DNA of 64,000 bases from Burkholderiales bacterium (GTDB lineage Bacteria > Pseudomonadota > Gammaproteobacteria > Burkholderiales > SG8-39): the NCBI GenBank assembly GCA_035651575.1, contig DASRFM010000069.1, forward strand, positions 12,725 through 76,724, written 5' to 3'. The notes under the pieces were generated by a model, which ran no database searches, was not told where the DNA came from, and saw only the letters and a list, made by a program, of their open reading frames with translations. Both the position numbers and the translations under genes were made by a program. Every line of letters begins with the position of its first letter. Position 1 is the stretch's first letter. This document shows, in pieces, positions 4,112-11,764 of this stretch.

Positions 4112-5073
4112 GGCGCGAGCGCGCCGCCGCAGGAAGAGCCCTGTCCGGCAGTGCAGCCGAAGCAGTGATCGCGCACGGCGATCGGGTTGTCCAGGAGATC
4201 GCGCCCGGCAAGCTCGCGCAGGTGCACGCGGCGGCGGCCTTCCACGACGAGCGGCAGGCCGAGCATCTGGTTGAAGTCGCAGTCGTACACGAAGCCCTGC
4301 CAGTCCACCGACACCAGGCTGCGGCACATGACGGACCCGAGATTCTCGTCCCGGTGCGAGCCGCGCAGGAGCGCCATGTAGTCGCGGAACGTGCCCTTCG
4401 ACACGAGGGTGGAGCCAAAGCGCTGGATCGGCATGTTGGCGAGCGTGTAGAGCCGGTTGAAGACGATGCCGTGCCGCGCTGCGAGCTCGCGCCGGTAGTC
4501 GGCCTCGAGCGGCTCCTGCGGCGGCGGCAGCACCGGCCCCTGCGGGTTGTAGACCAGGTTCAGCGCGAGGCCGCTCTCGGGCGCGCCGTAGCCGAGCGCG
4601 TTCAGCGCCTTGAGCGCCGCGATGCTGCGCGCGTAGACGCCCTGGCCGCGCTGCCGGTCGACGAGCTCCTCGCCGTAGCAGGGCAGCGAGGCGATGATTT
4701 CGACGCGCTGCGCAGCGAGGAAGCCGGCGAGGCCCTCCTGTCCCGGCTCGAGCAGGATGGTGAGATTGCAGCGATCAATGACGTGGACGCCGAGCCCGCG
4801 CGCGCCCTCGACCAGCGCCCGGAAGTGGGGATTCAGCTCGGGCGCCCCTCCGGTGATGTCGAGATTCCCGAGCTTTCGCTGTTCGAGAAACGCGACGATC
4901 TCGAGCACCGTCTCGCGCGACATCATCTCGGTGCGCGTCGGGCCGGCGTTGACGTGGCAGTGCAGGCAGCTCTGGTTGCACCTGTAGCCCAGGTTCACCT
5001 GCAGCGTCTCGAGGCGGCCGCGGCGCAGCGCCGGAAAGCCGTGCTCGCGCATCAAAGGAAGCGTCGCGTGCAT
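4108..5073 (-). CDS. arsS: ArsS-family radical SAM / Cys-rich domain protein (arsenosugar-biosynthesis-type radical SAM)
   Basis: Track ORF of 321 aa. Radical-SAM CX3CX2C motif is GYRCNQSCLHCHV. C-terminal Cys-rich tail is DHCFGCTAGQGSSCGG. There is no in-frame TGA, so this is the Cys form, not the Sec form. Confidence 0.8.
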   Translation of the reverse strand: MHATLPLMREHGFPALRRGRLETLQVNLGYRCNQSCLHCHVNAGPTRTEMMSRETVLEIVAFLEQRKLGNLDITGGAPELNPHFRALVEGARGLGVHVIDRCNLTILLEPGQEGLAGFLAAQRVEIIASLPCYGEELVDRQRGQGVYARSIAALKALNALGYGAPESGLALNLVYNPQGPVLPPPQEPLEADYRRELAARHGIVFNRLYTLANMPIQRFGSTLVSKGTFRDYMALLRGSHRDENLGSVMCRSLVSVDWQGFVYDCDFNQMLGLPLVVEGRRRVHLRELAGRDLLDNPIAVRDHCFGCTAGQGSSCGGALAP

Positions 5074-5104
5074 GAACGCTCGGTCGCGCGGGGTCCGGTG
5101 CGCC

Positions 5105-5650
5105 TTACGGCAGGATGTTCGCGGCGCCCTGCGACTGCTCGTCGAGCAGCTCGAGCACGCGCTGGCTCGTGGCGCGCAGCCGCTGCGACAGCATGAGGAC
5201 CAGCTCCATCAGCACCTTGGCGCCGAGCATGGGCTGCTCGACGATGATGCGGGCGAGGCTTTCCCGGTCGAGCATCGCGACCAGCACCGGCTCCGAGCAG
5301 ACGCAGGTGGCGAAGCGCGCCTCGCCGTCGATCATGGACATCTCGCCCAGGACCTTGCCGGCGTCCACGACCGCGATCAGCTGGGGCGTGTTCCAGCGGT
5401 CGCGCTTGCGCACTTCCACCTTGCCCTCGACGATCATCAGCATGAAGTCGCCGCCGTCGCCTTCCCGGATCAGCTCGATGCCGGCCTCCGCCCGGTAGAC
5501 GTCCATGAAGTGCGCGAGCAGGCGCACCTCGGCCGGCGAGAAGTTCTCCAGCAGCGCGCACTTCGGGATGAGCGCATGCAGCTGGCCGGCGAACTGCGTC
5601 GCATCGCCGAGATGCTCGAGGTGGGCGAGCTGCTGCGGCCGGTCGGGCAT
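5105..5650 (-). CDS. Stand-alone cyclic-nucleotide-binding (CAP effector-type) domain protein
   Basis: Internal ATG at 5650 of track ORF 5105..6904, giving 181 aa. Sequence ...FSPAEVRLLAHFMDVYRAEAGIELIREGDGGDFMLMIVEGKVEV...GEMSMIDGEARFATC is typical of a cNMP-binding beta-barrel. No HTH follows. Confidence 0.75.
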   Translation of the reverse strand: MPDRPQQLAHLEHLGDATQFAGQLHALIPKCALLENFSPAEVRLLAHFMDVYRAEAGIELIREGDGGDFMLMIVEGKVEVRKRDRWNTPQLIAVVDAGKVLGEMSMIDGEARFATCVCSEPVLVAMLDRESLARIIVEQPMLGAKVLMELVLMLSQRLRATSQRVLELLDEQSQGAANILP

Positions 5651-5685
5651 ACCCTGCGCATTATGCCCAATCGGGCGGGCCGGGG

Positions 5686-6795
5686 TTAGCCGCGCCGCTG
5701 CTTGCGGCGGCGGCGCACCGCCTCGGCGAGGTCCTCCAGCAGCCGGGCGGAGTCCTCCCATCCGAGGCAGGGGTCGGTCACGCTCTGGCCGAACACCAGG
5801 CGCCCGCCGCCCAGGTCCTGCCGGCCCTCCACCAGGTTCGATTCCACCATGAGCCCGACGATGCGCCGCTCGCCCTGCGCGAGGCGCTCGCCGATGTCGC
5901 GCGCCACCTCCAGCTGCTTCCTGTATTGCTTGGACGAGTTGGCATGCGAGCAGTCGATCATCAGGCGCTCGGCAAGCTTCGCCTTCTTCAGCTCCTCGCA
6001 GGCCGCCTGCACCGAGGCGTCGTCGTAGTTCGGCTGCTTGCCGCCGCGCAGGATGACGTGGCAATCCTCGTTGCCGCGCGTCTCGACGATCGCCACCTGG
6101 CCGCTCTTGTGCACCGAGAGGAAATGGTGCTTCTGCCTCGCCGCGAGGAGCGCGTCCACCGCGATCTTCACGTTGCCGTCGGTGCCGTTCTTGAAGCCTA
6201 CCGCCGCCGAGAGGCCCGAGGCGAGCTCGCGGTGCACCTGGCTTTCCGTGGTGCGCGCGCCGATCGCGCCCCACGAGACGAGGTCGCCGATGTACTGCGG
6301 CGAGATCACGTCGAGGAACTCGCAGCCGGCCGGTACGCCTGCCTGGTTGATGCGCACCAGCAGGTCGCGCGCGATTCGCAGGCCCTCGTTGATGCGGAAG
6401 CTGCCGTCGAGATGGGGATCGTTGATGAGGCCCTTCCAGCCCACCGTCGTGCGCGGCTTCTCGAAATACACCCGCATCAGGATCTCGAGCTCGCCCTCGT
6501 GCCTTTTCCTCTCCCCGGCGAGCTTCTCCGCGTACGCGACCGCGGCCTGGGGGTCGTGGATCGAGCAGGGGCCGATGACGACGAGCAGCCGGTCGGACTT
6601 GGCGTGCAGGATGTCGCGCACCTTGCGGCGCGTTTCCGCGATCCTCTTCTCCACCGGCGTGCCGCTGATGGGAAAGAACCGGATCAGGTGCTCCGGCGGC
6701 GGCAGCGGCACGATGTTGGCGATGCGCTCGTCGTCGGTGAGCGAGGTCTTGTCCGCCGGGACGGTGCTCAGGTAGCTCTCGGTTGGCGCGGTCAT
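5686..6795 (-). CDS. aroG: Class I 3-deoxy-7-phosphoheptulonate (DAHP) synthase
   Basis: 369 aa. Contains LLVVIGPCSIHDP, MRVYFEKPRTTVGWKGLINDP, WGAIGARTTESQVHRELASGLS and IDCSHANS. SD GAGGTG lies 7 nt upstream of the ATG. The isoenzyme type (Phe/Tyr/Trp-sensitive) cannot be read from the sequence. Confidence 0.95.
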   Translation of the reverse strand: MTAPTESYLSTVPADKTSLTDDERIANIVPLPPPEHLIRFFPISGTPVEKRIAETRRKVRDILHAKSDRLLVVIGPCSIHDPQAAVAYAEKLAGERKRHEGELEILMRVYFEKPRTTVGWKGLINDPHLDGSFRINEGLRIARDLLVRINQAGVPAGCEFLDVISPQYIGDLVSWGAIGARTTESQVHRELASGLSAAVGFKNGTDGNVKIAVDALLAARQKHHFLSVHKSGQVAIVETRGNEDCHVILRGGKQPNYDDASVQAACEELKKAKLAERLMIDCSHANSSKQYRKQLEVARDIGERLAQGERRIVGLMVESNLVEGRQDLGGGRLVFGQSVTDPCLGWEDSARLLEDLAEAVRRRRKQRRG

Positions 6796-6812
6796 AGGTT
6801 TTCACCTCGGGC

Positions 6813-6849
6813 AAAAAAAAAACCGCCAGGCTTTCGGCTGGCGGTTTTT
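6813..6849 (-). terminator. Intrinsic terminator acting as attenuator in the aroG leader
   Basis: Minus-strand RNA reads AAAAA-CCGCCAG-CCGAAAGC-CUGGCGG-UUUUUUUUUU. The stem is 6844..6838 paired with 6829..6823, followed by a 10-U tract at 6822..6813. It ends 17 nt before the aroG ATG. Confidence 0.8.
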
Positions 6850-6869
6850 CGGGATTCGCGGTGATGCGT

Positions 6870-6935
6870 CTAGCCGTTCCCCTCCGCCAGCAGGCGCGGG
6901 ACATGGAAGAAGAACCCGAAGAAGAACCGGCTCAT
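6870..6935 (-). CDS. Phe-rich leader peptide MSRFFFGFFFHVPRLLAEGNG (21 aa)
   Basis: ATG AGC CGG TTC TTC TTC GGG TTC TTC TTC CAT ... TAG. Six TTC codons fall within residues 4-10. The ORF lies immediately upstream of the terminator/antiterminator pair and of aroG. Confidence 0.7.
   Translation of the reverse strand: MSRFFFGFFFHVPRLLAEGNG
6884..6891 (-). promoter_or_regulatory. Antiterminator segment (GCUGGCGG) complementary to the terminator 5' arm
   Basis: Minus-strand GCTGGCGG inside the leader ORF is a perfect 8-nt complement of CCGCCAGC at 6844..6837. This pairing excludes the terminator stem. Confidence 0.6.
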
Positions 6936-6979
6936 CACGCCCTATTGAAGCACGAACCGCCCGGCCCCGGCAAATGGCC

Positions 6980-7423
6980 TCATTTCCTCGGCCACAGGAT
7001 CATCTGCGTGCAGCGAAACAGCGCGATGCGGGCCGCGCTCGCCTCGACGCTGACCTCCGCGTCCCAGACCTGGGTGGTGCGGCCCAGGTGGACCGGCGTG
7101 GCGCGGCAGGCGAGCGCGCCCTCGAGCGCGGTGCCGAGGAAGTTGGCCTTGAGCTCGAGGGTGGTGAAGCCGCTTGCGCCGGCCGGCAGGTGGGAGACGC
7201 AGGCGTAGCCGCAGCTCGTGTCGGCGAGCGCGATCACGCTCGCGGCGTGCAGGAAGCCGTTCGGCGCCAGCAGCTCGCGCCGGATCTCGAGGCGGCTCTC
7301 GAGCACCTCGGGGCGCACGGAGACGATCGATAGTCCGACCAGACCAGGCAGGTGGCCCGCGCTCTTCGCGTTGAACGCCGCCGGGGTCAACTCCGGGCGG
7401 AAGCTATCCGTCAGGGATTTCAT
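6980..7423 (-). CDS. PaaI-family (hotdog fold) thioesterase
   Basis: Track ORF of 147 aa. Sequence ...LESRLEIRRELLAPNGFLHAASVIALADTSCGYA...TLELKANFLG...GRTTQVWDAEV is typical of PaaI/4HBT-type thioesterases. Confidence 0.8.
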   Translation of the reverse strand: MKSLTDSFRPELTPAAFNAKSAGHLPGLVGLSIVSVRPEVLESRLEIRRELLAPNGFLHAASVIALADTSCGYACVSHLPAGASGFTTLELKANFLGTALEGALACRATPVHLGRTTQVWDAEVSVEASAARIALFRCTQMILWPRK

Positions 7424-7557
7424 GGTCCGACTGTACCGGGATTGGCACTCGCGCGCGCGGATTGCCAGGCGCAGGGTTTGCTAGGCAGGAAGCATCATGC
7501 TAATTTTTTCATGCGGGGTGGAGTCAGCAGTCAAAAAAAGAGGAAGGTGGGTGACCG

Positions 7558-8541
7558 ATGCCTGAGACCGTCGCCAAACCACAGCCTGTGATTCCGATTG
7601 CCGGGTTCAAGGACGTCTACGACGTCCCGAGCGTGGAGAAGGCTCTGCACGAGCTGCCGCCCGGCGCGAACGAGGCGCTGCGCGCGGTGTACGAGAAGAT
7701 GCTGCGCCTCGGCGGCCAGCGCTTCACCGTCAAGCCCTCGGCGCTGCCCGAGATGGACGCCCTCTTCGAGGAGCTGCCCAATTTCACCGCGGCGCTCGAG
7801 GACATCCGCAAGCACCTCGCGCTGTGCATCGACTCGAACGACTCGGTCGAGTTACCGCCGATGCTGCTCCTCGGCGAGCCGGGAATCGGCAAGACGCACT
7901 TCGCGCGCAAGGTCGCGCAGCTGCTCGGCACCGGCTTCGGCTTCGTGCCGATGAGCTCGCTCACCGCCGGCTGGGTGCTCTCCGGCGCCTCGTCGCAATG
8001 GAAGAACGCGAAGCCGGGCAAGGTGTTCGACACCTTCCTCAACGGCGACTACGCGAACCCCGTCATCGTCGTCGATGAGATCGACAAGGCGAGCGGCGAG
8101 GGGCAGTACGACCCGCTCGGCGCACTCTACGAGCTCCTCGAGAGCCAGACCGCGACGCGCTTCGTGGACGAGTTCGTCGAGCTGCCGATCGACGCCTCGG
8201 GCGCGGTATGGCTCGCCACCGCGAACGACCCGGCACGCATCCCCGAGCCGCTCCTGAACCGGCTGTGCGTGTACGAGATCGACGCCCCGGACGCGGCGGG
8301 CGCCGCGCGCATCGCGCAGAACATTTATGGCGAGATCCGCGGCGCGCACGACTGGGGACGCGCGTTCCCCGAGCGCCTCGGCGGCTCGGCGCTCGCCAAG
8401 CTCGCCACGATGCCGCCGCGCGAGATGCGCCGCGCGATCCACGCCGCCTTCGGCAACGCGAAGATCGCGGGACGCGGCGAAGTCACGCCCGAGGACATCA
8501 GCGACGGCCGCGCCGGCCGGAAAGCGCGGATCGGCTTCTAA
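7558..8541 (+). CDS. AAA+ ATPase resembling the Lon ATPase module, without a protease domain
   Basis: 327 aa. Walker A is LLLGEPGIGKTHFARKVA and Walker B is VIVVDEIDKAS. GDPLGALYELLESQTATRFVDEFVELPIDASGAVWLATAN and IPEPLLNRLCV parallel Lon AAA+ motifs. SD GGAAGGTGG lies upstream. Confidence 0.7.
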   Translation: MPETVAKPQPVIPIAGFKDVYDVPSVEKALHELPPGANEALRAVYEKMLRLGGQRFTVKPSALPEMDALFEELPNFTAALEDIRKHLALCIDSNDSVELPPMLLLGEPGIGKTHFARKVAQLLGTGFGFVPMSSLTAGWVLSGASSQWKNAKPGKVFDTFLNGDYANPVIVVDEIDKASGEGQYDPLGALYELLESQTATRFVDEFVELPIDASGAVWLATANDPARIPEPLLNRLCVYEIDAPDAAGAARIAQNIYGEIRGAHDWGRAFPERLGGSALAKLATMPPREMRRAIHAAFGNAKIAGRGEVTPEDISDGRAGRKARIGF

Positions 8542-8819
8542 TGCTTGGCCGGGTTTAGCGTGCCCCGGTTGTAGTCCCGGTCGCCCTCGTAGACCTTGCG
8601 GCCGAGGCCGAACAGCCCGCCCTGCGCCGAGCGCTCGCGCGCATCCTCTTTTTCGGCGGCGGCGCGCTGCACCTCGGCTTTCTGGCGGTCCGCGTATTCC
8701 CAGCGCCCGTTGGGCAGGAGCCTGACCCTCTCGCCGGTCGCGGTCGTTGCCTCGATCGGGCTCTCCTGCGAAAAGACATGCGGAGAAAAGAGCAGCAGAA
8801 AAACCAGCGCGGCCCTCAA
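8538..8819 (-). CDS. Small secreted hypothetical protein (93 aa)
   Basis: TTG at 8819..8817 overlaps the alaS stop as TTGA. The N-terminus (M)[20 protein letters not shown] looks like a signal peptide. GC3-rich codons. The 3' end overlaps the convergent AAA+ gene by 4 nt. Confidence 0.5.
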
Positions 8820-11764
8820 AGGCGCTGCTCGACCCAGGGCTGGACCGAGCGCAGCGCGCCCGGAAGCTTGGCGGCGTCGGTGCCGCCCGCCTGCGCCATG
8901 TCGGGGCGGCCACCGCCCTTGCCGCCGACCTGCTGCGCCACGTAGTTCACGAGCTCGCCCGCCTTCACCTTCGCCGTGAGGTCCGGCGTGACGCCGGCGA
9001 TCAGCGAGACCTTGCCCTCGTTCACCGCGCCCAGAACGATCGCCGCGGACTTGAGCTTGCCCTTCAGCTGGTCCAGCGTCTCGCGCAGGATCTTCGGGTC
9101 GGCGCCCTCGACGGTCACGGCGAGCACCTTGGCACCCTTTACGTCCACCGCCTGCGCGCTCAGGTCGGAGCCCTGGCTCGAGACGAGCTTCAGCTTGAGG
9201 CGCGCAAGCTCCTTCTCCAGCGCGCGCTTCTCCTCGAGCATCCCGCTCAGCGCCTTCTCGACCATGCCGGGACCCGGCTGCGCGCGCAGCTGGCGCGCCA
9301 CCTCGCCGAACTCCTTCAGCTGCTCGTTGACCAGGCCGAGCGCGCGCTCGCCGGTCGTGGCCTCGACGCGGCGGATGCCGGCCGCGACGCCGCCCTCGGA
9401 ATAGATCTTGAAGAGTCCGATGTCGCCGGTGCGCGCGACGTGCGTGCCGCCGCAGAATTCGCGCGAGGTGCCGATGTCGAGCACGCGCACCTCGTCGCCG
9501 TACTTCTCGCCGAAGAGCATCATGGCGCCGGAGCTCTTCGCCTGCTCGATCGGCATGACCTGCGCGCGCGTCGGCGTGTTCTGCAGGATCTCGGCGTTGA
9601 CGCGCGCCTCGACCTCGCGGATCTCCTCCTCGCTCACCGGCTTGCCATGCGAGAAGTCGAAGCGCGTCTTGTCGGCGTCGACGAGCGAGCCGCGCTGCTG
9701 GACGTGGCCGCCGAGCACGTCGCGCAGCGCCTTGTGCATGAGGTGCGTGACCGAGTGGTTGCGCATCGTGCGCCGGCGAAGCGCGCTGTCGACGCGAGCC
9801 TCGACGCGGTCGCCGACCTTCAGGCGACCGACCTTGAGCGTGCCGTGGTGGCCGAAGACCTCCGCCTGGATCTTCTGGGTGTCGTCCACCGAGAACGTGC
9901 CGCCCGGGGCGACGAGCTCGCCGCGGTCGCCCACCTGGCCGCCCGATTCCGCGTAGAACGGGGTCTCGTCGAGCACCACGGTGCCCGTGTCGCCGCTCTT
10001 CAGCTCCTCGACGCGCGTGCCCTCCCGGTAGAGCGCGACGACCTTCGCCGGATGGTCCATCTTCTCGTAGCCGCGGAATTCCGTCCTGGCGCCGCTGTAC
10101 TCCAGTCCCGCCGCCATCGCGAACTTCGATGCGGCGCGCGCCTTGGCGCGCTGCTCCTGCATGGCCGTGTCGTACGCCGAGACGTCGACCGGGATGCCTT
10201 TCTCGCGGCACAGATCCTGCGTCAGGTCGAACGGAAAGCCGTACGTGTCGTAGAGCGTGAAGGCGGTGCGGCCGTCGAACGGGATCGCCGCTTCCCTCAG
10301 GTAGATCACGCGCACCTTGTCGTAGTCGCGCCCGCGGCCCACCTTGTCGAGCAGCTCCTCGGGCGTCTTGTCGGACGGGCCGTGGAACACGAGGTACATG
10401 CGCGCGGGCTTGCCCGACTTGGCCGCGTACTCGTCTACCGCCGCGACGCAGGCGCGCACCAGCTCGTCGACGTTCGCCACCGCGCCCGCGCGCTTCACCT
10501 GCACGAGGATGTCCTCGTTGTCCTTGTGGAACGCGCCGTCGGAAATGCGGCCCCTCGTTTCCTCGAAAAACCTGAAGTCGTGCACAAAGTGGTCGCGGAT
10601 ATAGCCGATCGCCCGCGCCTCGGTCTTCGCGCCCTGCTCGAAGAGCCGCATGCCGTTCTCGAGCGTCTCGGCGAACTTCTCCTCTTCGGCCTTGAGCGTC
10701 TCGGCGACGCGCGCCTTCGAAGCGCGCAGCTCGGGGTAGGCATCGCCCATCGCCTGGTCGAGGTCCCCGACCAGGCGGTAGAAGAACGGCTCCTTGCGGC
10801 CGAGCTGGTAGCCGTGGCGGATCGCCCGGCGGATGATCCGCCTCAGCACGTAGCCGCGCCCCTCGTTGCCGGGAATGACGCCGTCGACCACGAGGAAGGC
10901 ACAGGCGCGGATGTGGTCCGCGATCACGTTGAGCGAAGGCTGCCTGAAATTCCTCTGGCCGGTCTCGCGCGCCGCCGCCTTGATGAGATCCTGGAACAGG
11001 TCGATCTCGTAGTTGGAATGCTTGCCCTGCAGCACTGCCGCGATGCGCTCGAGCCCCATCCCCGTATCGACGCAGGGCTTGGGCAGGGGGGTGAGCACGC
11101 CCTTCTCGTCCCGGCTGTACTGCATGAAGACGAGGTTCCAGATCTCGATGTAGCGGTCGCCCTCCGCGTCGGGCGAGCCCGGGGGGCCGCCCGCGATGCC
11201 CGGGCCGTGGTCGTAGAAGATCTCGCTGCACGGCCCGCAGGGACCGGTGTCGGCCATCTGCCAGAAATTGTCGGACTGGTATTTGGGCGCGCCGGGCTTG
11301 TCGCCGATGCGCACGACCCGCTCCTTCGGCAGTCCGATCATCTTCGTCCAGAGCTCGTAGGCCTCGTCGTCGGTCTCGTAGACCGTCGCCCAGAGCTTGT
11401 CGACCGGCAGCTTGTAGACCTTCGTCAGGAGCTCCCAGGCGAAGGCGATCGCATCCTTCTTGAAGTAGTCGCCGAAAGAGAAATTGCCGAGCATCTCGAA
11501 GAAGGTGTGGTGCCGGGCGGTGTATCCCACGTTCTCGAGATCGTTGTGCTTGCCCCCGGCGCGCAGCGAGCGCTGCGAGCTCGTGGCGCGCGAATAGGGC
11601 CTCTTGTCCTTGCCGAGGAACACGTCCTTGAACTGCACCATCCCCGAGTTCGTGAAGAGCAGCGTCGGGTCGTTCGCCGGAACGAGCGGACTCGAGGGCA
11701 CCACGCTGTGGCCCTTCGAGCGGAAGTACTCGAGGAAGCTCGAGCGGATTTCTGCGCTTTTCAT
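8816..11764 (-). CDS. alaS: Alanine--tRNA ligase carrying an insertion of about 109 aa
   Basis: 982 aa. Contains [55 protein letters not shown], the editing-domain motifs HSVTHLMH and CGGTHV, and the C-terminal [15 protein letters not shown]. See the finding on the insertion at about 10286..10624. Confidence 0.95.

Follow-up and report, generated by a model that had tools for sequence, protein, structure and literature searches.

We find that aroG, the gene for the DAHP synthase that forms the committed entry step of aromatic amino acid synthesis, is very likely controlled in a 64-kb stretch of Burkholderiales DNA (the whole stretch analysed, here called the window) by a classical ribosome-mediated transcription attenuator, which would set its expression by the supply of charged tRNA-Phe. 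An earlier note on this DNA had proposed a Phe leader peptide and a mutually exclusive terminator and antiterminator in control of DAHP synthase, and conservation, covariation and a ribosome-masking simulation now support that proposal. The decisive evidence that the arrangement lies beyond chance is its recurrence in about 60 other aroG loci, together with the match of the window to an independent covariance model. We computed the elements, their conservation, their covariation and the structural logic; ribosome stalling, premature termination and the Phe response are inferred, as are the promoter and the start site of transcription.

Results

Leader, terminator and antiterminator

The features of the region, all on the minus strand, are collected in Table 1. 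Checked base by base on that strand, every coordinate and sequence previously given for the leader, the hairpin and the pairings was correct. The leader open reading frame (ORF) encoding MSRFFFGFFFHVPRLLAEGNG extends from ATG (6935..6933) to TAG (6872..6870), and its six TTC codons lie at 6926..6918 and 6914..6906. Downstream, the arms CCGCCAG (6844..6838) and CTGGCGG (6829..6823) enclose an 8-nt loop, CCGAAAGC, which can close one further C-G pair around a GAAA tetraloop, and the U10 tract (6822..6813) ends 17 nt before the aroG ATG (6795). Within the leader, GCUGGCGG (6891..6884) is the perfect complement of CCGCCAGC (6844..6837), and the extension suggested with it is also present, GGGA (6881..6878) being complementary to UCCC (6854..6851). 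Rarity within this single sequence is a matter of 8-mer placement only, at about 0.006 when the right strand and a span of 60 nt are required; the 8-mer itself, GCTGGCGG, is not rare in the GC-rich window, which holds 13 copies versus 11.5 expected.

Table 1. Features of the aroG leader region and neighbouring genes in the window.
Feature	Position	Strand	Basis
Candidate -35 hexamer TTGCCG	6968..6973	-	Motif match, 18 nt 5' of the -10 hexamer
Candidate extended -10 TGc-TTCAAT	6944..6952	-	Motif; ends 8 nt before leader ATG
Leader ORF, 21 codons + TAG, MSRFFFGFFFHVPRLLAEGNG	6870..6935	-	Direct sequence reading
Regulatory codon run, TTC x3, GGG, TTC x3 (Phe codons 4-6, 8-10)	6906..6926	-	Sequence
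Region 1, predicted 5' partner sequestering region 2 without a stalled ribosome	6893..6926	-	MFE folds
Region 2, antiterminator 5' strand, GCUGGCGG-A-GGGGA, within leader codons 15-19	6878..6891	-	Complementarity
Region 3, UCCC...CCGCCAGC, common to antiterminator and terminator	6837..6854	-	Sequence, pairing tests
Intrinsic terminator (regions 3:4): A5, CCGCCAG, loop CCGAAAGC, CUGGCGG, U10	6813..6849	-	MFE fold, covariation
aroG Shine-Dalgarno GAGGTG, 7 nt before ATG	6803..6808	-	Sequence
aroG, type I-alpha DAHP synthase, controlled gene	5686..6795	-	Pfam DAHP_synth_1, E 2.6e-89
cNMP-binding protein gene, 35 nt after aroG stop	5105..5650	-	Pfam cNMP_binding, E 3.1e-15
4HBT thioesterase gene	7423..6980	-	Pfam

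A simple consensus terminator scan of 5000..9000 returned no terminators, which is a false negative, as the minimum free energy (MFE) fold has a 12-pair hairpin followed by the U-tract (-18.2 kcal/mol). As previously reported, no other terminator is seen in the sequence after the thioesterase gene. The fold of 6990..6790, a check put forward in the earlier note, has the terminator in its MFE structure. The z of this full-length RNAfold structure (-0.78) is uninformative because competing structures cancel out, and the informative folds are segment-wise: the terminator (3:4) has z = -4.3 against dinucleotide shuffles (family -4.9), and the antiterminator hairpin (2:3; -21.6 kcal/mol) has z = -2.7 (family mean -2.66).

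Conservation and covariation

The same architecture, with a homologous aromatic-rich leader 5' of aroG, occurs in about 60 of the 80 closest aroG loci, its carriers being Burkholderiales and one Pseudoxanthomonas; 51 were found by pattern search and aligned, and 9 more by covariance-model search. The shared parts are an ATG, a run of Phe/Tyr/Trp codons, YNGGCGG (region 2) and a terminator of the form AAACCGCCRG…CYGGCGG-U6-10. Across the 51-sequence alignment the start codon hardly varies (TG in every sequence, A in at least 90%, GTG in L003), and nearly every locus has YNGGCGG at ORF nt 42-50. Leader ORF, region 2 and terminator recur jointly 5' of aroG whatever the upstream gene. A thioesterase gene upstream is common only to L039 among the related loci, and thus the element follows aroG rather than its upstream neighbour.

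A covariance model (R2) built from 46 members, with the window and its four nearest relatives (L001, L002, L003 and L039) excluded, matches 6947..6816 of the minus strand over model positions 1-146 of 146 (a 132-nt element; 63 bits, E about 6e-16), and has no second full-length match in the 64 kb. Below E 1 the model otherwise matches only the palindromic terminator hairpin, on the plus strand. No Rfam 15 leader family matches 6500..7300 at E <= 10, and none of 20 related loci has a gathering-level Rfam match. Likeness to the pheA leader as an Rfam family is therefore not borne out, Phe_leader being unmatched even at that relaxed threshold. The weak Rfam matches that do occur (rpsL_pseudo, Rev39, sX6 and others) align only the generic terminator hairpin and were set aside.

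RNAalifold on the full alignment recovers the terminator alone as consensus structure, and the alternative helices were therefore tested explicitly. For the terminator pair at columns 147-163, 29 sequences have G-C, 21 have A-U and one is broken, with further exchanges of A-U to G-C and C-G to U-A. The region 2 core and the terminator 5' arm are paired in 87% of cells, versus 17-55% in slid controls. An anchored three-way table of region 2 and both arms gives (C,G,C) 20, (U,A,U) 13 and (U,G,C) 4, and one locus (L066) has an independent G>A in region 2 that is matched by C>U in the 5' arm and A in the 3' arm. The covarying antiterminator position is mismatched in 13 of the 51 sequences, and because the A/G to U/C covariation is for the most part divided along clade lines, it probably reflects few independent events. 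On comparison with relatives, which the earlier note had suggested, the aromatic run thus proved to be kept, the terminator pairs to covary and region 2 to track the terminator 5' arm.

The leader peptide

Family members carry 6-8 aromatic residues per 8 positions of the run, with totals of F 247, Y 92 and W 41, and the family thus reads Phe, Tyr and Trp, not Phe alone. The window is a Phe-only variant (F6 Y0 W0) and the sole Phe-only member among the tabulated leaders, the 52 others all having Tyr and/or Trp. The original description of a Phe run therefore holds for the window, where the run is pure Phe, but does not extend to its relatives, whose runs are mixed. In these relatives TTT makes up 60% of the Phe codons of the leaders versus 19% in the adjacent aroG coding sequences, the rare-codon enrichment typical of leader peptides. 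The window leader has the common TTC only and no rare Phe codon, which counts against the attenuator reading.

The order of aromatic residues differs freely between relatives (FFFGFFF, FYFYFFW, FFAFYFWF and others), and the C-terminus of the peptide is read in different frames across region 2 in different clades (LAEG, PGGRE, AAGE). Because GGCGG is kept despite these differing frames, the constraint appears to act at the RNA level rather than the peptide level.

Ribosome position and folding

We masked the footprint of a ribosome at each position on the nascent RNA and compared the resulting folds. For the window, antiterminator formation is confined to A-site positions at codons 3-11, a stretch that holds all six Phe codons, and does not occur at codons 1-2 and 12-22. 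In the family as a whole, 80% of the aromatic-run codons are permissive and roughly the 10 codons after the run never are. This simulation reproduces the stalling geometry that had been claimed. Permissiveness at the stop codon, which the model returned for 47% of family members, is treated as an artefact, as the model ignores the ribosome's steric block in the loop. For the full-length RNA at equilibrium the terminator is always favoured, by 5-12 kcal/mol, and the switch must therefore, we assume, be kinetic, as it is in E. coli trp.

A predicted upstream 1:2 pairing that would hold region 2 is a possible fourth element, which the earlier note did not contain. Its pairings in ribosome-free MFE folds are UUCUUCUU with GAGGGGAA, CGGG with CCCG and a local CGCC/GGCG hairpin. 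In the family, a clamp of UUCUC with GAGAG is 84% paired and shows C-G to U-A exchanges, versus 68% and similar covariation in a control slid by +2. The 1:2 energy z averages -0.9 (window -0.3), and in the simple masking model 33% of family members form the antiterminator without a ribosome. These folds weakly suggest a 1:2 anti-antiterminator, which would be the weakest element of the attenuator.

Promoter and gene context

The leader very probably has its own dedicated promoter in the 44-nt gap after the thioesterase gene. A TGN-extended -10 ends 4-10 nt 5' of the leader ATG in 24 of the 51 loci (background 0.75%), and a relaxed hexamer sought within 5-10 nt is found in 34 (background 5%), at distances of 6-9 nt. 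The TTGCC of the candidate -35 recurs at equal spacing in L001 and L002; L039 has TAGACA there. A consensus promoter scan of 5000..9000 returned no promoters, and missed this candidate because it fails the 9-of-12 rule and lacks the required A at -10 position 2.

The position of the -10 motif implies a transcription start about 0-3 nt from the leader ATG, and the leader is probably leaderless or nearly so. An SD-like (Shine-Dalgarno) motif is absent before 50 of the 51 leaders, and leader translation would thus depend on such a leaderless start. A transcript coming from upstream of the thioesterase gene, as had been suggested, is unneeded given the conserved extended -10 located 6-9 nt before the ATG. 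The 13-codon ORF (6983..6942) that was thought to bridge the two is present in the sequence but is not conserved, being absent in the syntenic relative L039, and it overlaps the candidate leader promoter.

Pfam assigned both flanking genes as claimed (DAHP_synth_1 at 6795..5686, 4HBT thioesterase at 7423..6980). The encoded AroG has bit scores of 443-447 with the Phe-sensitive E. coli AroG and N. meningitidis DAH7PS, and 371 with the Tyr-sensitive AroF. A cNMP-binding gene also follows aroG in L039 (77% identity) and L051. In the window this gene lies in the frame given in Table 1; a 169-aa ORF at 5052..5561, considered as the cNMP gene, is in the wrong frame and has no Pfam match. No terminator is seen in the 35-nt gap between aroG and the cNMP-binding gene, a further 31 nt separate that gene from arsS, and L039 keeps the gene order. 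Joint control of both downstream genes by co-transcription with aroG is plausible from this arrangement.

Alternative explanations

We consider it very improbable that the sensor is something other than charged tRNA, whether by TnaC-like arrest, with the aromatic nascent peptide halting the ribosome in response to a free amino acid, or by a small molecule or protein binding the GGCGG/GAGAGG RNA. Such a sensor might explain why GGCGG and the next purine-rich block are near invariant beyond strict pairing needs, and why the 1:2 element expected of the classical model is weak. However, the conserved RNA blocks are all explained as strands of the 1:2, 2:3 and 3:4 helices, rare TTT codons are enriched in relatives, and neither a riboswitch nor any other Rfam family was matched. 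A specific arrest peptide is rejected by the free variation of aromatic order and the shifted C-terminal frame.

No more probable is action in trans, as a small RNA or micropeptide, of the terminated leader RNA of about 125 nt or of the 21-aa peptide, besides or instead of control in cis. The predicted short RNA, constitutively made, terminated and structured, with its strong U-tail, has the typical form of an attenuator-derived sRNA, and two reports on Sinorhizobium provide a precedent, in which the trp attenuator products rnTrpL and peTrpL act in trans (PMC7298713, PMC7968998). Against this stand a peptide whose conservation stops at the aromatic run and whose C-terminal frame changes, and the lack of any target indicated here; trans action is in any case compatible with the cis mechanism.

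Mainly translational control, in which the structures or coupling to the leader would tune how accessible the aroG SD is, with an incidental U-tract, is less probable again. The SD does lie just 5-10 nt 3' of the U-tract in the window, yet it falls outside every conserved helix, and a terminator-to-ATG distance that ranges in other loci from about 0 to 100 nt leaves no fixed geometry for sequestering it. Additionally, each member has a canonical intrinsic terminator, formed by the hairpin and U6-10.

Least likely of all, and effectively refuted by synteny, is that the hairpin and U10 merely terminate or insulate the thioesterase gene, with the Phe ORF and the 8-nt complementarity coincidental and aroG expressed by read-through or another signal. 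In favour of it, no other terminator follows the thioesterase, the 8-mer is commonplace in the window, and the hairpin, with A5 on one side and U10 on the other, could work in both directions. However, the ORF, region 2 and terminator occur together in about 60 aroG loci of which only L039 has the thioesterase, the independent model gives the whole element its 63 bits, and a terminator 17 nt before the aroG ATG must be traversed by aroG transcripts, there being no room for a start downstream of 6813.

Discussion

In the attenuation mechanism that we propose, the dedicated promoter TTGCCG-N18-TGc-TTCAAT would start transcription a few bases 5' of the leader AUG, and a ribosome would start on MSRFFFGFFFHVPRLLAEGNG at once. 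When Phe-tRNA is plentiful, the ribosome would reach codons 12-22 and the UAG and cover region 2, GCUGGCGGAGGGGA (6891..6878), so that region 3, CCGCCAGC, would pair with region 4, the CCGCCAG/CUGGCGG-U10 terminator would form and RNA polymerase would stop 17 nt short of the aroG start codon. When Phe-tRNA is scarce, the ribosome would stall on the TTC run (codons 4-6 and 8-10), disrupting the upstream pairing that holds region 2 and leaving region 2 uncovered. Region 2 could then capture the emerging region 3 (8 bp plus GGGA/UCCC), no terminator would form, and transcription would read through into aroG and probably also into the cNMP-binding and arsS genes. On an untranslated leader, region 1 would hold region 2 and the terminator would form. 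If this model is true, changing region 2 from GCUGGCGG to GCUCCCGG should give low, non-inducible aroG expression.

We also put forward, tentatively and with somewhat less than even confidence, the broader reading that most Burkholderiales carry unannotated, multivalent (Phe/Tyr/Trp) and leaderless attenuators at the entry to the shikimate pathway, the window being a Phe-specialised derivative with a Phe-sensitive-type AroG. Transcripts would then begin at the AUG or no more than about 3 nt from it, with no SD, and the pioneering ribosome would enter at the nascent RNA's 5' end. If true, Proteobacteria would offer an instance of leaderless leader-peptide attenuation. The probable leaderless start could also make the element a simple natural system for studying how transcription-translation coupling is established where the RNA of a proteobacterial attenuator begins.

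The DAHP synthase genes of E. coli are controlled by the TyrR and TrpR repressors, with attenuation kept for trp, pheA and pheST. In the window and most Burkholderiales examined, this entry step appears to be under leader-peptide attenuation, and the relatives appear to read three aromatics at once. The aromatic-leader element of Burkholderiales aroG is absent from Rfam 15, although its mechanism class is already known. As a 21-codon ORF is, moreover, too short for most gene callers, annotation probably misses both the regulatory gene and the premature terminator, which together fill nearly the whole intergenic region. The element may offer a compact, portable Phe- or aromatic-responsive switch for engineering Burkholderia, Cupriavidus-like and Comamonadaceae hosts, and the attenuator would be an obvious target for removal when deregulating shikimate flux.

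Comparison with known systems

The pheL-pheA and pheST leaders are alike in mechanism class, with a short Phe-dense ORF and alternative antiterminator and terminator hairpins, and the FFFGFFFHVP of the window resembles the FFF-x-FFF-x-x-P pattern of E. coli PheL. Unlike them, the window element would control the common shikimate entry enzyme, not PheRS or an enzyme of the Phe branch; it is followed by a DAHP synthase gene, where Rfam Phe_leader precedes pheA (chorismate mutase / prephenate dehydratase). It also has no detectable RNA homology to them (no Rfam leader match at E <= 10), lacks an SD before the leader AUG and has relatives with mixed Phe/Tyr/Trp runs. The thr and ilvGMEDA leaders of E. 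coli integrate several end products, as the mixed run of the family would likewise do, whereas the window leader is Phe-only.

A published pheL survey deals with the gamma subdivision only (PMC3082878). We found no published proteobacterial aroG leader in the literature searched, although literature outside that search or RegPrecise could hold one. Only TyrR/TrpR regulons are given for aroG/F/H in PMC5343134, aro genes are unmentioned in PMC2965389 and PMC1262725, the attenuators listed in PMC1173090 are all generic database ones (such as that before Vibrio aroF-tyrA), and PMC2836559 contains nothing relevant to an aroG leader.

In E. coli and other bacteria the start codons of leader peptides are generally preceded by an SD (PMC4007540), and a leaderless leader ORF in Proteobacteria would thus be unusual. 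In Deinococcus deserti, 14 putative leader peptides start at the 5' terminus of the transcript or beside it (PMC4007540), a start similar to the one that the promoter motif suggests for the window. According to a title cited in PMC4046766, the leader peptide of C. glutamicum ilvB is formed without a ribosome-binding site.

At the same enzymatic step, a predicted element of Mollicutes, uORFC-13-1, lies upstream of aroF in Acholeplasma and has 24 representatives, all in that group (PMC8632094). Like the window element, it has a Phe-codon uORF directly 5' of an intrinsic terminator and a DAHP synthase gene, and its motif includes -35 and -10 elements, comparable to the candidate promoter of the window. 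It differs in having a ribosome-binding site before the uORF and at least one Phe codon where the window has a long run, and it is unrelated in sequence, with no Rfam-type match in the window. In C. glutamicum, the aroR leader peptide (Phe-Tyr-Phe) attenuates the aroF DAHP synthase operon and is reported to respond to Phe limitation (PMC11802643, PMC4046766). This is equal logic at an equal step, and the precedent supports the attenuator reading of aroG in the window. The aroR system belongs to Actinobacteria and has three aromatic codons, versus 6-8 in the Burkholderiales element with its highly conserved CCGCCRG terminator/antiterminator core. The two are presumably independent inventions, likened by function only.

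A candidate attenuator upstream of aroG

The proposal that Phe-leader attenuation acts on DAHP synthase, made in the earlier note, is confirmed as an observation and supported as an interpretation by family conservation and structure tests. The element would combine a Phe leader ORF of 21 codons with a promoter of its own, an RNA switch of four segments and an intrinsic terminator, and the evidence supports their joint control of aroG. The same switch probably also controls the two genes downstream of aroG.

Reading the minus strand from 7100 to 6700 placed the leader ORF, hairpin, U10, Shine–Dalgarno (SD) sequence and 8-nt complement where the earlier note had located them. GGGA/UCCC offers further complementarity beside the 8-nt match. 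We number the successive RNA segments 1 to 4, with 1:2 the anti-antiterminator, 2:3 the antiterminator and 3:4 the terminator. The region 2 8-mer is by itself unremarkable in this GC-rich window (13 copies versus 11.5 expected), and thus the single-sequence case relies on placement and fold energies, for which z relative to shuffles was -4.3 for the terminator and -2.7 for the 2:3 hairpin. The terminator is plain in RNAfold (12-pair hairpin plus U10, 6849..6813); despite this, a consensus promoter/terminator scan of 5000..9000 returned zero terminator-like sites, and its negative results are unreliable here. At the terminator (6813..6849) the hairpin lies between A5 and U10 and scores 20-21 bits on the plus strand too. 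It could in principle be active in both directions; no convergent gene is present.

Features of the aroG leader region and of the first downstream gene, with positions in the window
Feature	Position	Strand	Basis
Candidate -35 TTGCCG, 18 nt 5' of the -10	6973..6968	minus	motif
TGc extension, last three bases of the 18-nt spacer	6952..6950	minus	motif
Candidate -10 TTCAAT, ending 8 nt before the leader ATG	6949..6944	minus	motif
Leader ORF, 21 codons, six TTC, encoding MSRFFFGFFFHVPRLLAEGNG	ATG 6935 to TAG 6872..6870	minus	sequence reading
Region 2 GCUGGCGG, 8-nt perfect complement to CCGCCAGC	6891..6884 x 6844..6837	minus	sequence reading
Hairpin CCGCCAG / CTGGCGG, 8-nt loop	6844..6838 / 6829..6823	minus	sequence reading
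U tract, ten U, 17 nt 5' of the aroG ATG (6795)	6822..6813	minus	sequence reading
aroG SD GAGGTG	between U tract and ATG 6795	minus	sequence reading
13-codon bridging ORF	6983..6942	minus	
cNMP-binding gene, 181 aa, PF00027 E 3.1e-15	5650..5105	minus	Pfam

A conserved Burkholderiales family

As judged by sequence comparison, the element is a member of a conserved Burkholderiales family. We compared the 80 closest aroG loci in GTDB genomes (handles prefixed L), nearly all from Burkholderiales, the nearest relatives having AroG proteins ~80% identical. A script that took the most aromatic-rich short ORF 5' of each aroG, followed by a hairpin and T-run, found the window's layout in more than 50 of the 80. 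Example leaders are MSRYFFFGFFYFPCLLAEGTG (locus L039), MTRWYFGYFFHFPRPLAEGNG (L002), MSAKFYFYFFWHLRPLADREG (Paraburkholderia) and MSRFAFFAFYFWFSVPGGREASL (Hydrogenophaga), each followed by AAACCGCCRG, a loop and CYGGCGG-U6-10. Across the 51-sequence alignment the block order is ATG, aromatic codon run, UUCUC-like patch, YNGGCGG-A-(N)GAGAGG, CCUC-like patch and terminator.

A covariance model added nine members that had escaped the regular-expression search (L012, L019, L029, L038, L049, L058, L059, L062 and L064), bringing the element to about 60 of 80 loci. The ~20 without it are mostly Polynucleobacter (L009, L021), Cupriavidus (L023, C. necator), Rhodocyclales (L054, L055, L060 and L065, Rhodocyclales-like) and Methylophilales (L061, L069 and L078, Methylophilaceae), which implies that these lineages may have lost the element or control aroG another way. 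A second model, from which the window and the four loci closest to it were left out, matches the window full-length at 6947..6816 (minus strand; 63 bits, E ~6e-16). There was no other full-length match in the 64 kb, and the sole other match with E < 1 was the palindromic terminator hairpin on the plus strand. Among relatives, a thioesterase lies 5' of the element in L039 alone, and thus the element tracks aroG rather than the upstream neighbour.

Folding and ribosome position

Conservation of pairing supports both competing structures. The terminator register is 91% paired versus 35-65% in slid controls; one of its pairs is G-C in 29 of the 51 sequences, A-U in 21 and unpaired in one, and two further pairs show rarer double changes. 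In the antiterminator, region 2 and the 5' arm of the terminator can form seven core pairs; 87% of cells are paired in this register versus 17-55% when slid, with one variable pair occurring as C-G (16), U-A (15) and U-G (3). When the sequences were anchored at the motif, which corrects misalignments of one column, the three positions in region 2, 5' arm and 3' arm read (C,G,C) in 20, (U,A,U) in 13 and (U,G,C) in 4, with 13 mismatches; the A/G to U/C change mostly tracks clade boundaries, and so reflects few independent events. Region 2 of L066 carries an independent G>A, and the terminator arms match it with C>U (5') and A (3'). GGCGG is kept although clades translate it in different frames (L-A-E-G, P-G-G-R-E, A-A-G-E), which points to constraint at the RNA rather than the peptide level. 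Additionally, 92% of members have a 2:3 segment more stable than shuffles, at a mean z of -2.66, and the family mean for 3:4 is -4.9. The 1:2 clamp (UUCUC x GAGAG) is the weak point of the switch: 84% of its cells are paired and C-G is exchanged for U-A, but with such repetitive strands a +2 slide scores nearly as high, and the clamp's mean energy z is only -0.9.

We simulated a 28-nt ribosome footprint at each leader codon and folded the remaining RNA. For full-length window RNA at equilibrium the terminator is always favoured, by 5-12 kcal/mol, as is likewise known for E. coli trp; thus control must be kinetic, and we modelled the nascent stage at which region 3 but not region 4 has been transcribed. 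The 2:3 antiterminator forms with the A-site at codons 3-11, which include all six Phe codons. It does not form at codons 1-2, where an upstream pairing holds region 2 (including UUCUUCUU x GAGGGGAA and a CGCC/GGCG hairpin), nor from codon 12 to 22 (the UAG), where the ribosome covers region 2. The simulation thereby reproduces the stalling geometry first proposed, and the codon-position pattern is classical. In the family as a whole, 80% of the codons in the aromatic run are permissive for 2:3, at least half of run codons are permissive in 88% of sequences, and none of the ~10 codons that follow the run ever is. Every member scored as permissive at the stop codon has that codon at least 24 nt beyond region 2, an artefact of a model that ignores the bulk of the ribosome within the loop.

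Leader content, initiation and gene neighbourhood

The claim of a Phe-codon leader holds for the window, but the family's run mixes Phe, Tyr and Trp (totals F 247, Y 92, W 41). With F6 Y0 W0, the window leader is the sole Phe-only one among 53; the other 52 all include Tyr and/or Trp, typically F4-6 Y1-3 W0-1. A Phe-only leader would fit the window's DAHP synthase, which in PDB sequence comparison is nearest the Phe-sensitive AroG type (443-447 bits versus 371 for Tyr-sensitive AroF). Relatives' leaders are enriched in the rare codon TTT, which makes up 60% of their Phe codons versus 19% in the adjacent aroG coding sequences; the window leader uses TTC only, the common codon.

A promoter-like motif sits in the 44-nt gap between thioesterase stop and leader ATG, and the arrangement recurs in L001, L002 and L039. 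Most Comamonadaceae-type loci carry TGc-TACATT ending 6-8 nt before the ATG. A TGN-extended -10 lies 4-10 nt before the ATG in 24 of 51 loci (background 0.75%), and a relaxed hexamer sought at 5-10 nt occurs in 34 of 51 (background 5%), at distances of 6-9 nt. No SD-like motif precedes 50 of the 51 leaders. Based on these motifs, the conserved ATG-proximal extended -10 and the missing SD-like motif, the leader is probably transcribed from a promoter of its own, as an mRNA that is leaderless or almost so. Ten Paraburkholderia/Caballeronia (L036, L041-L046) and Oxalobacteraceae (L052, L053, L057) loci are without the ATG-proximal -10 and instead carry TTGCCA-N17-TATAAA or TATAGT ~35-45 nt upstream of the ATG, so that the 5' UTR would be ~30 nt long; a clear SD is missing in most, and a weak GGAAG lies ~9-13 nt 5' of the ATG in L053. 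The 13-codon ORF thought to bridge thioesterase and leader does exist and overlaps the thioesterase stop (ATGA), but it coincides with the promoter motif, is absent in syntenic L039, the sole relative with the window's upstream gene, and is probably fortuitous.

Pfam matched both gene assignments of the earlier note, DAHP synthase downstream of the leader (E 2.6e-89) and a 4HBT thioesterase upstream. The cNMP-binding gene begins 35 nt past the aroG stop, and arsS (ATG 5073) 31 nt past the cNMP-binding gene; a 169-aa ORF at 5052..5561 (minus strand) was rejected as the cNMP gene, having no Pfam match and the wrong frame. As L039 keeps this order and the gap between aroG and the cNMP-binding gene shows no visible terminator, control of both genes together with aroG is plausible. 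The conserved order also suggests an odd operon in which DAHP synthase is joined with a radical SAM gene of the arsenosugar type.

Discussion

The mechanism is that of a textbook leader-peptide attenuator, classical and already known. What is new is the proteobacterial gene under control, an aromatic run that is multivalent, and a start that is probably leaderless. The leaderless and multivalent reading is the aspect most worth pursuing; the rest is solid and useful, not startling. The Burkholderiales leader family appears to be so far unannotated, with an earlier description possible.

Rfam leader families gave no match at 6500..7300 of the window even at E <= 10, and Rfam at the gathering threshold gave none in 20 relatives; by these negatives the element falls outside the pheL/Phe_leader RNA family. 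An SD generally precedes leader-peptide start codons in E. coli and others, and leader peptides with a leaderless start are on record for Deinococcus deserti (PMC4007540). For Corynebacterium glutamicum ilvB, a cited study is titled as describing leader peptide formation without a ribosome-binding site (PMC4046766). One comparative-genomics study reports proteobacterial DAHP synthase genes to be under TyrR/TrpR control (PMC5343134), and the only attenuators noted are generic database ones, 5' of Vibrio aroF-tyrA (PMC1173090). Within the literature searched, which is not exhaustive, the closest functional precedents are outside Proteobacteria: the predicted uORFC-13-1 motif 5' of aroF in Acholeplasma (PMC8632094), and C. 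glutamicum aroR-aroF, whose Phe-Tyr-Phe leader responds to Phe limitation (PMC11802643; PMC4046766).
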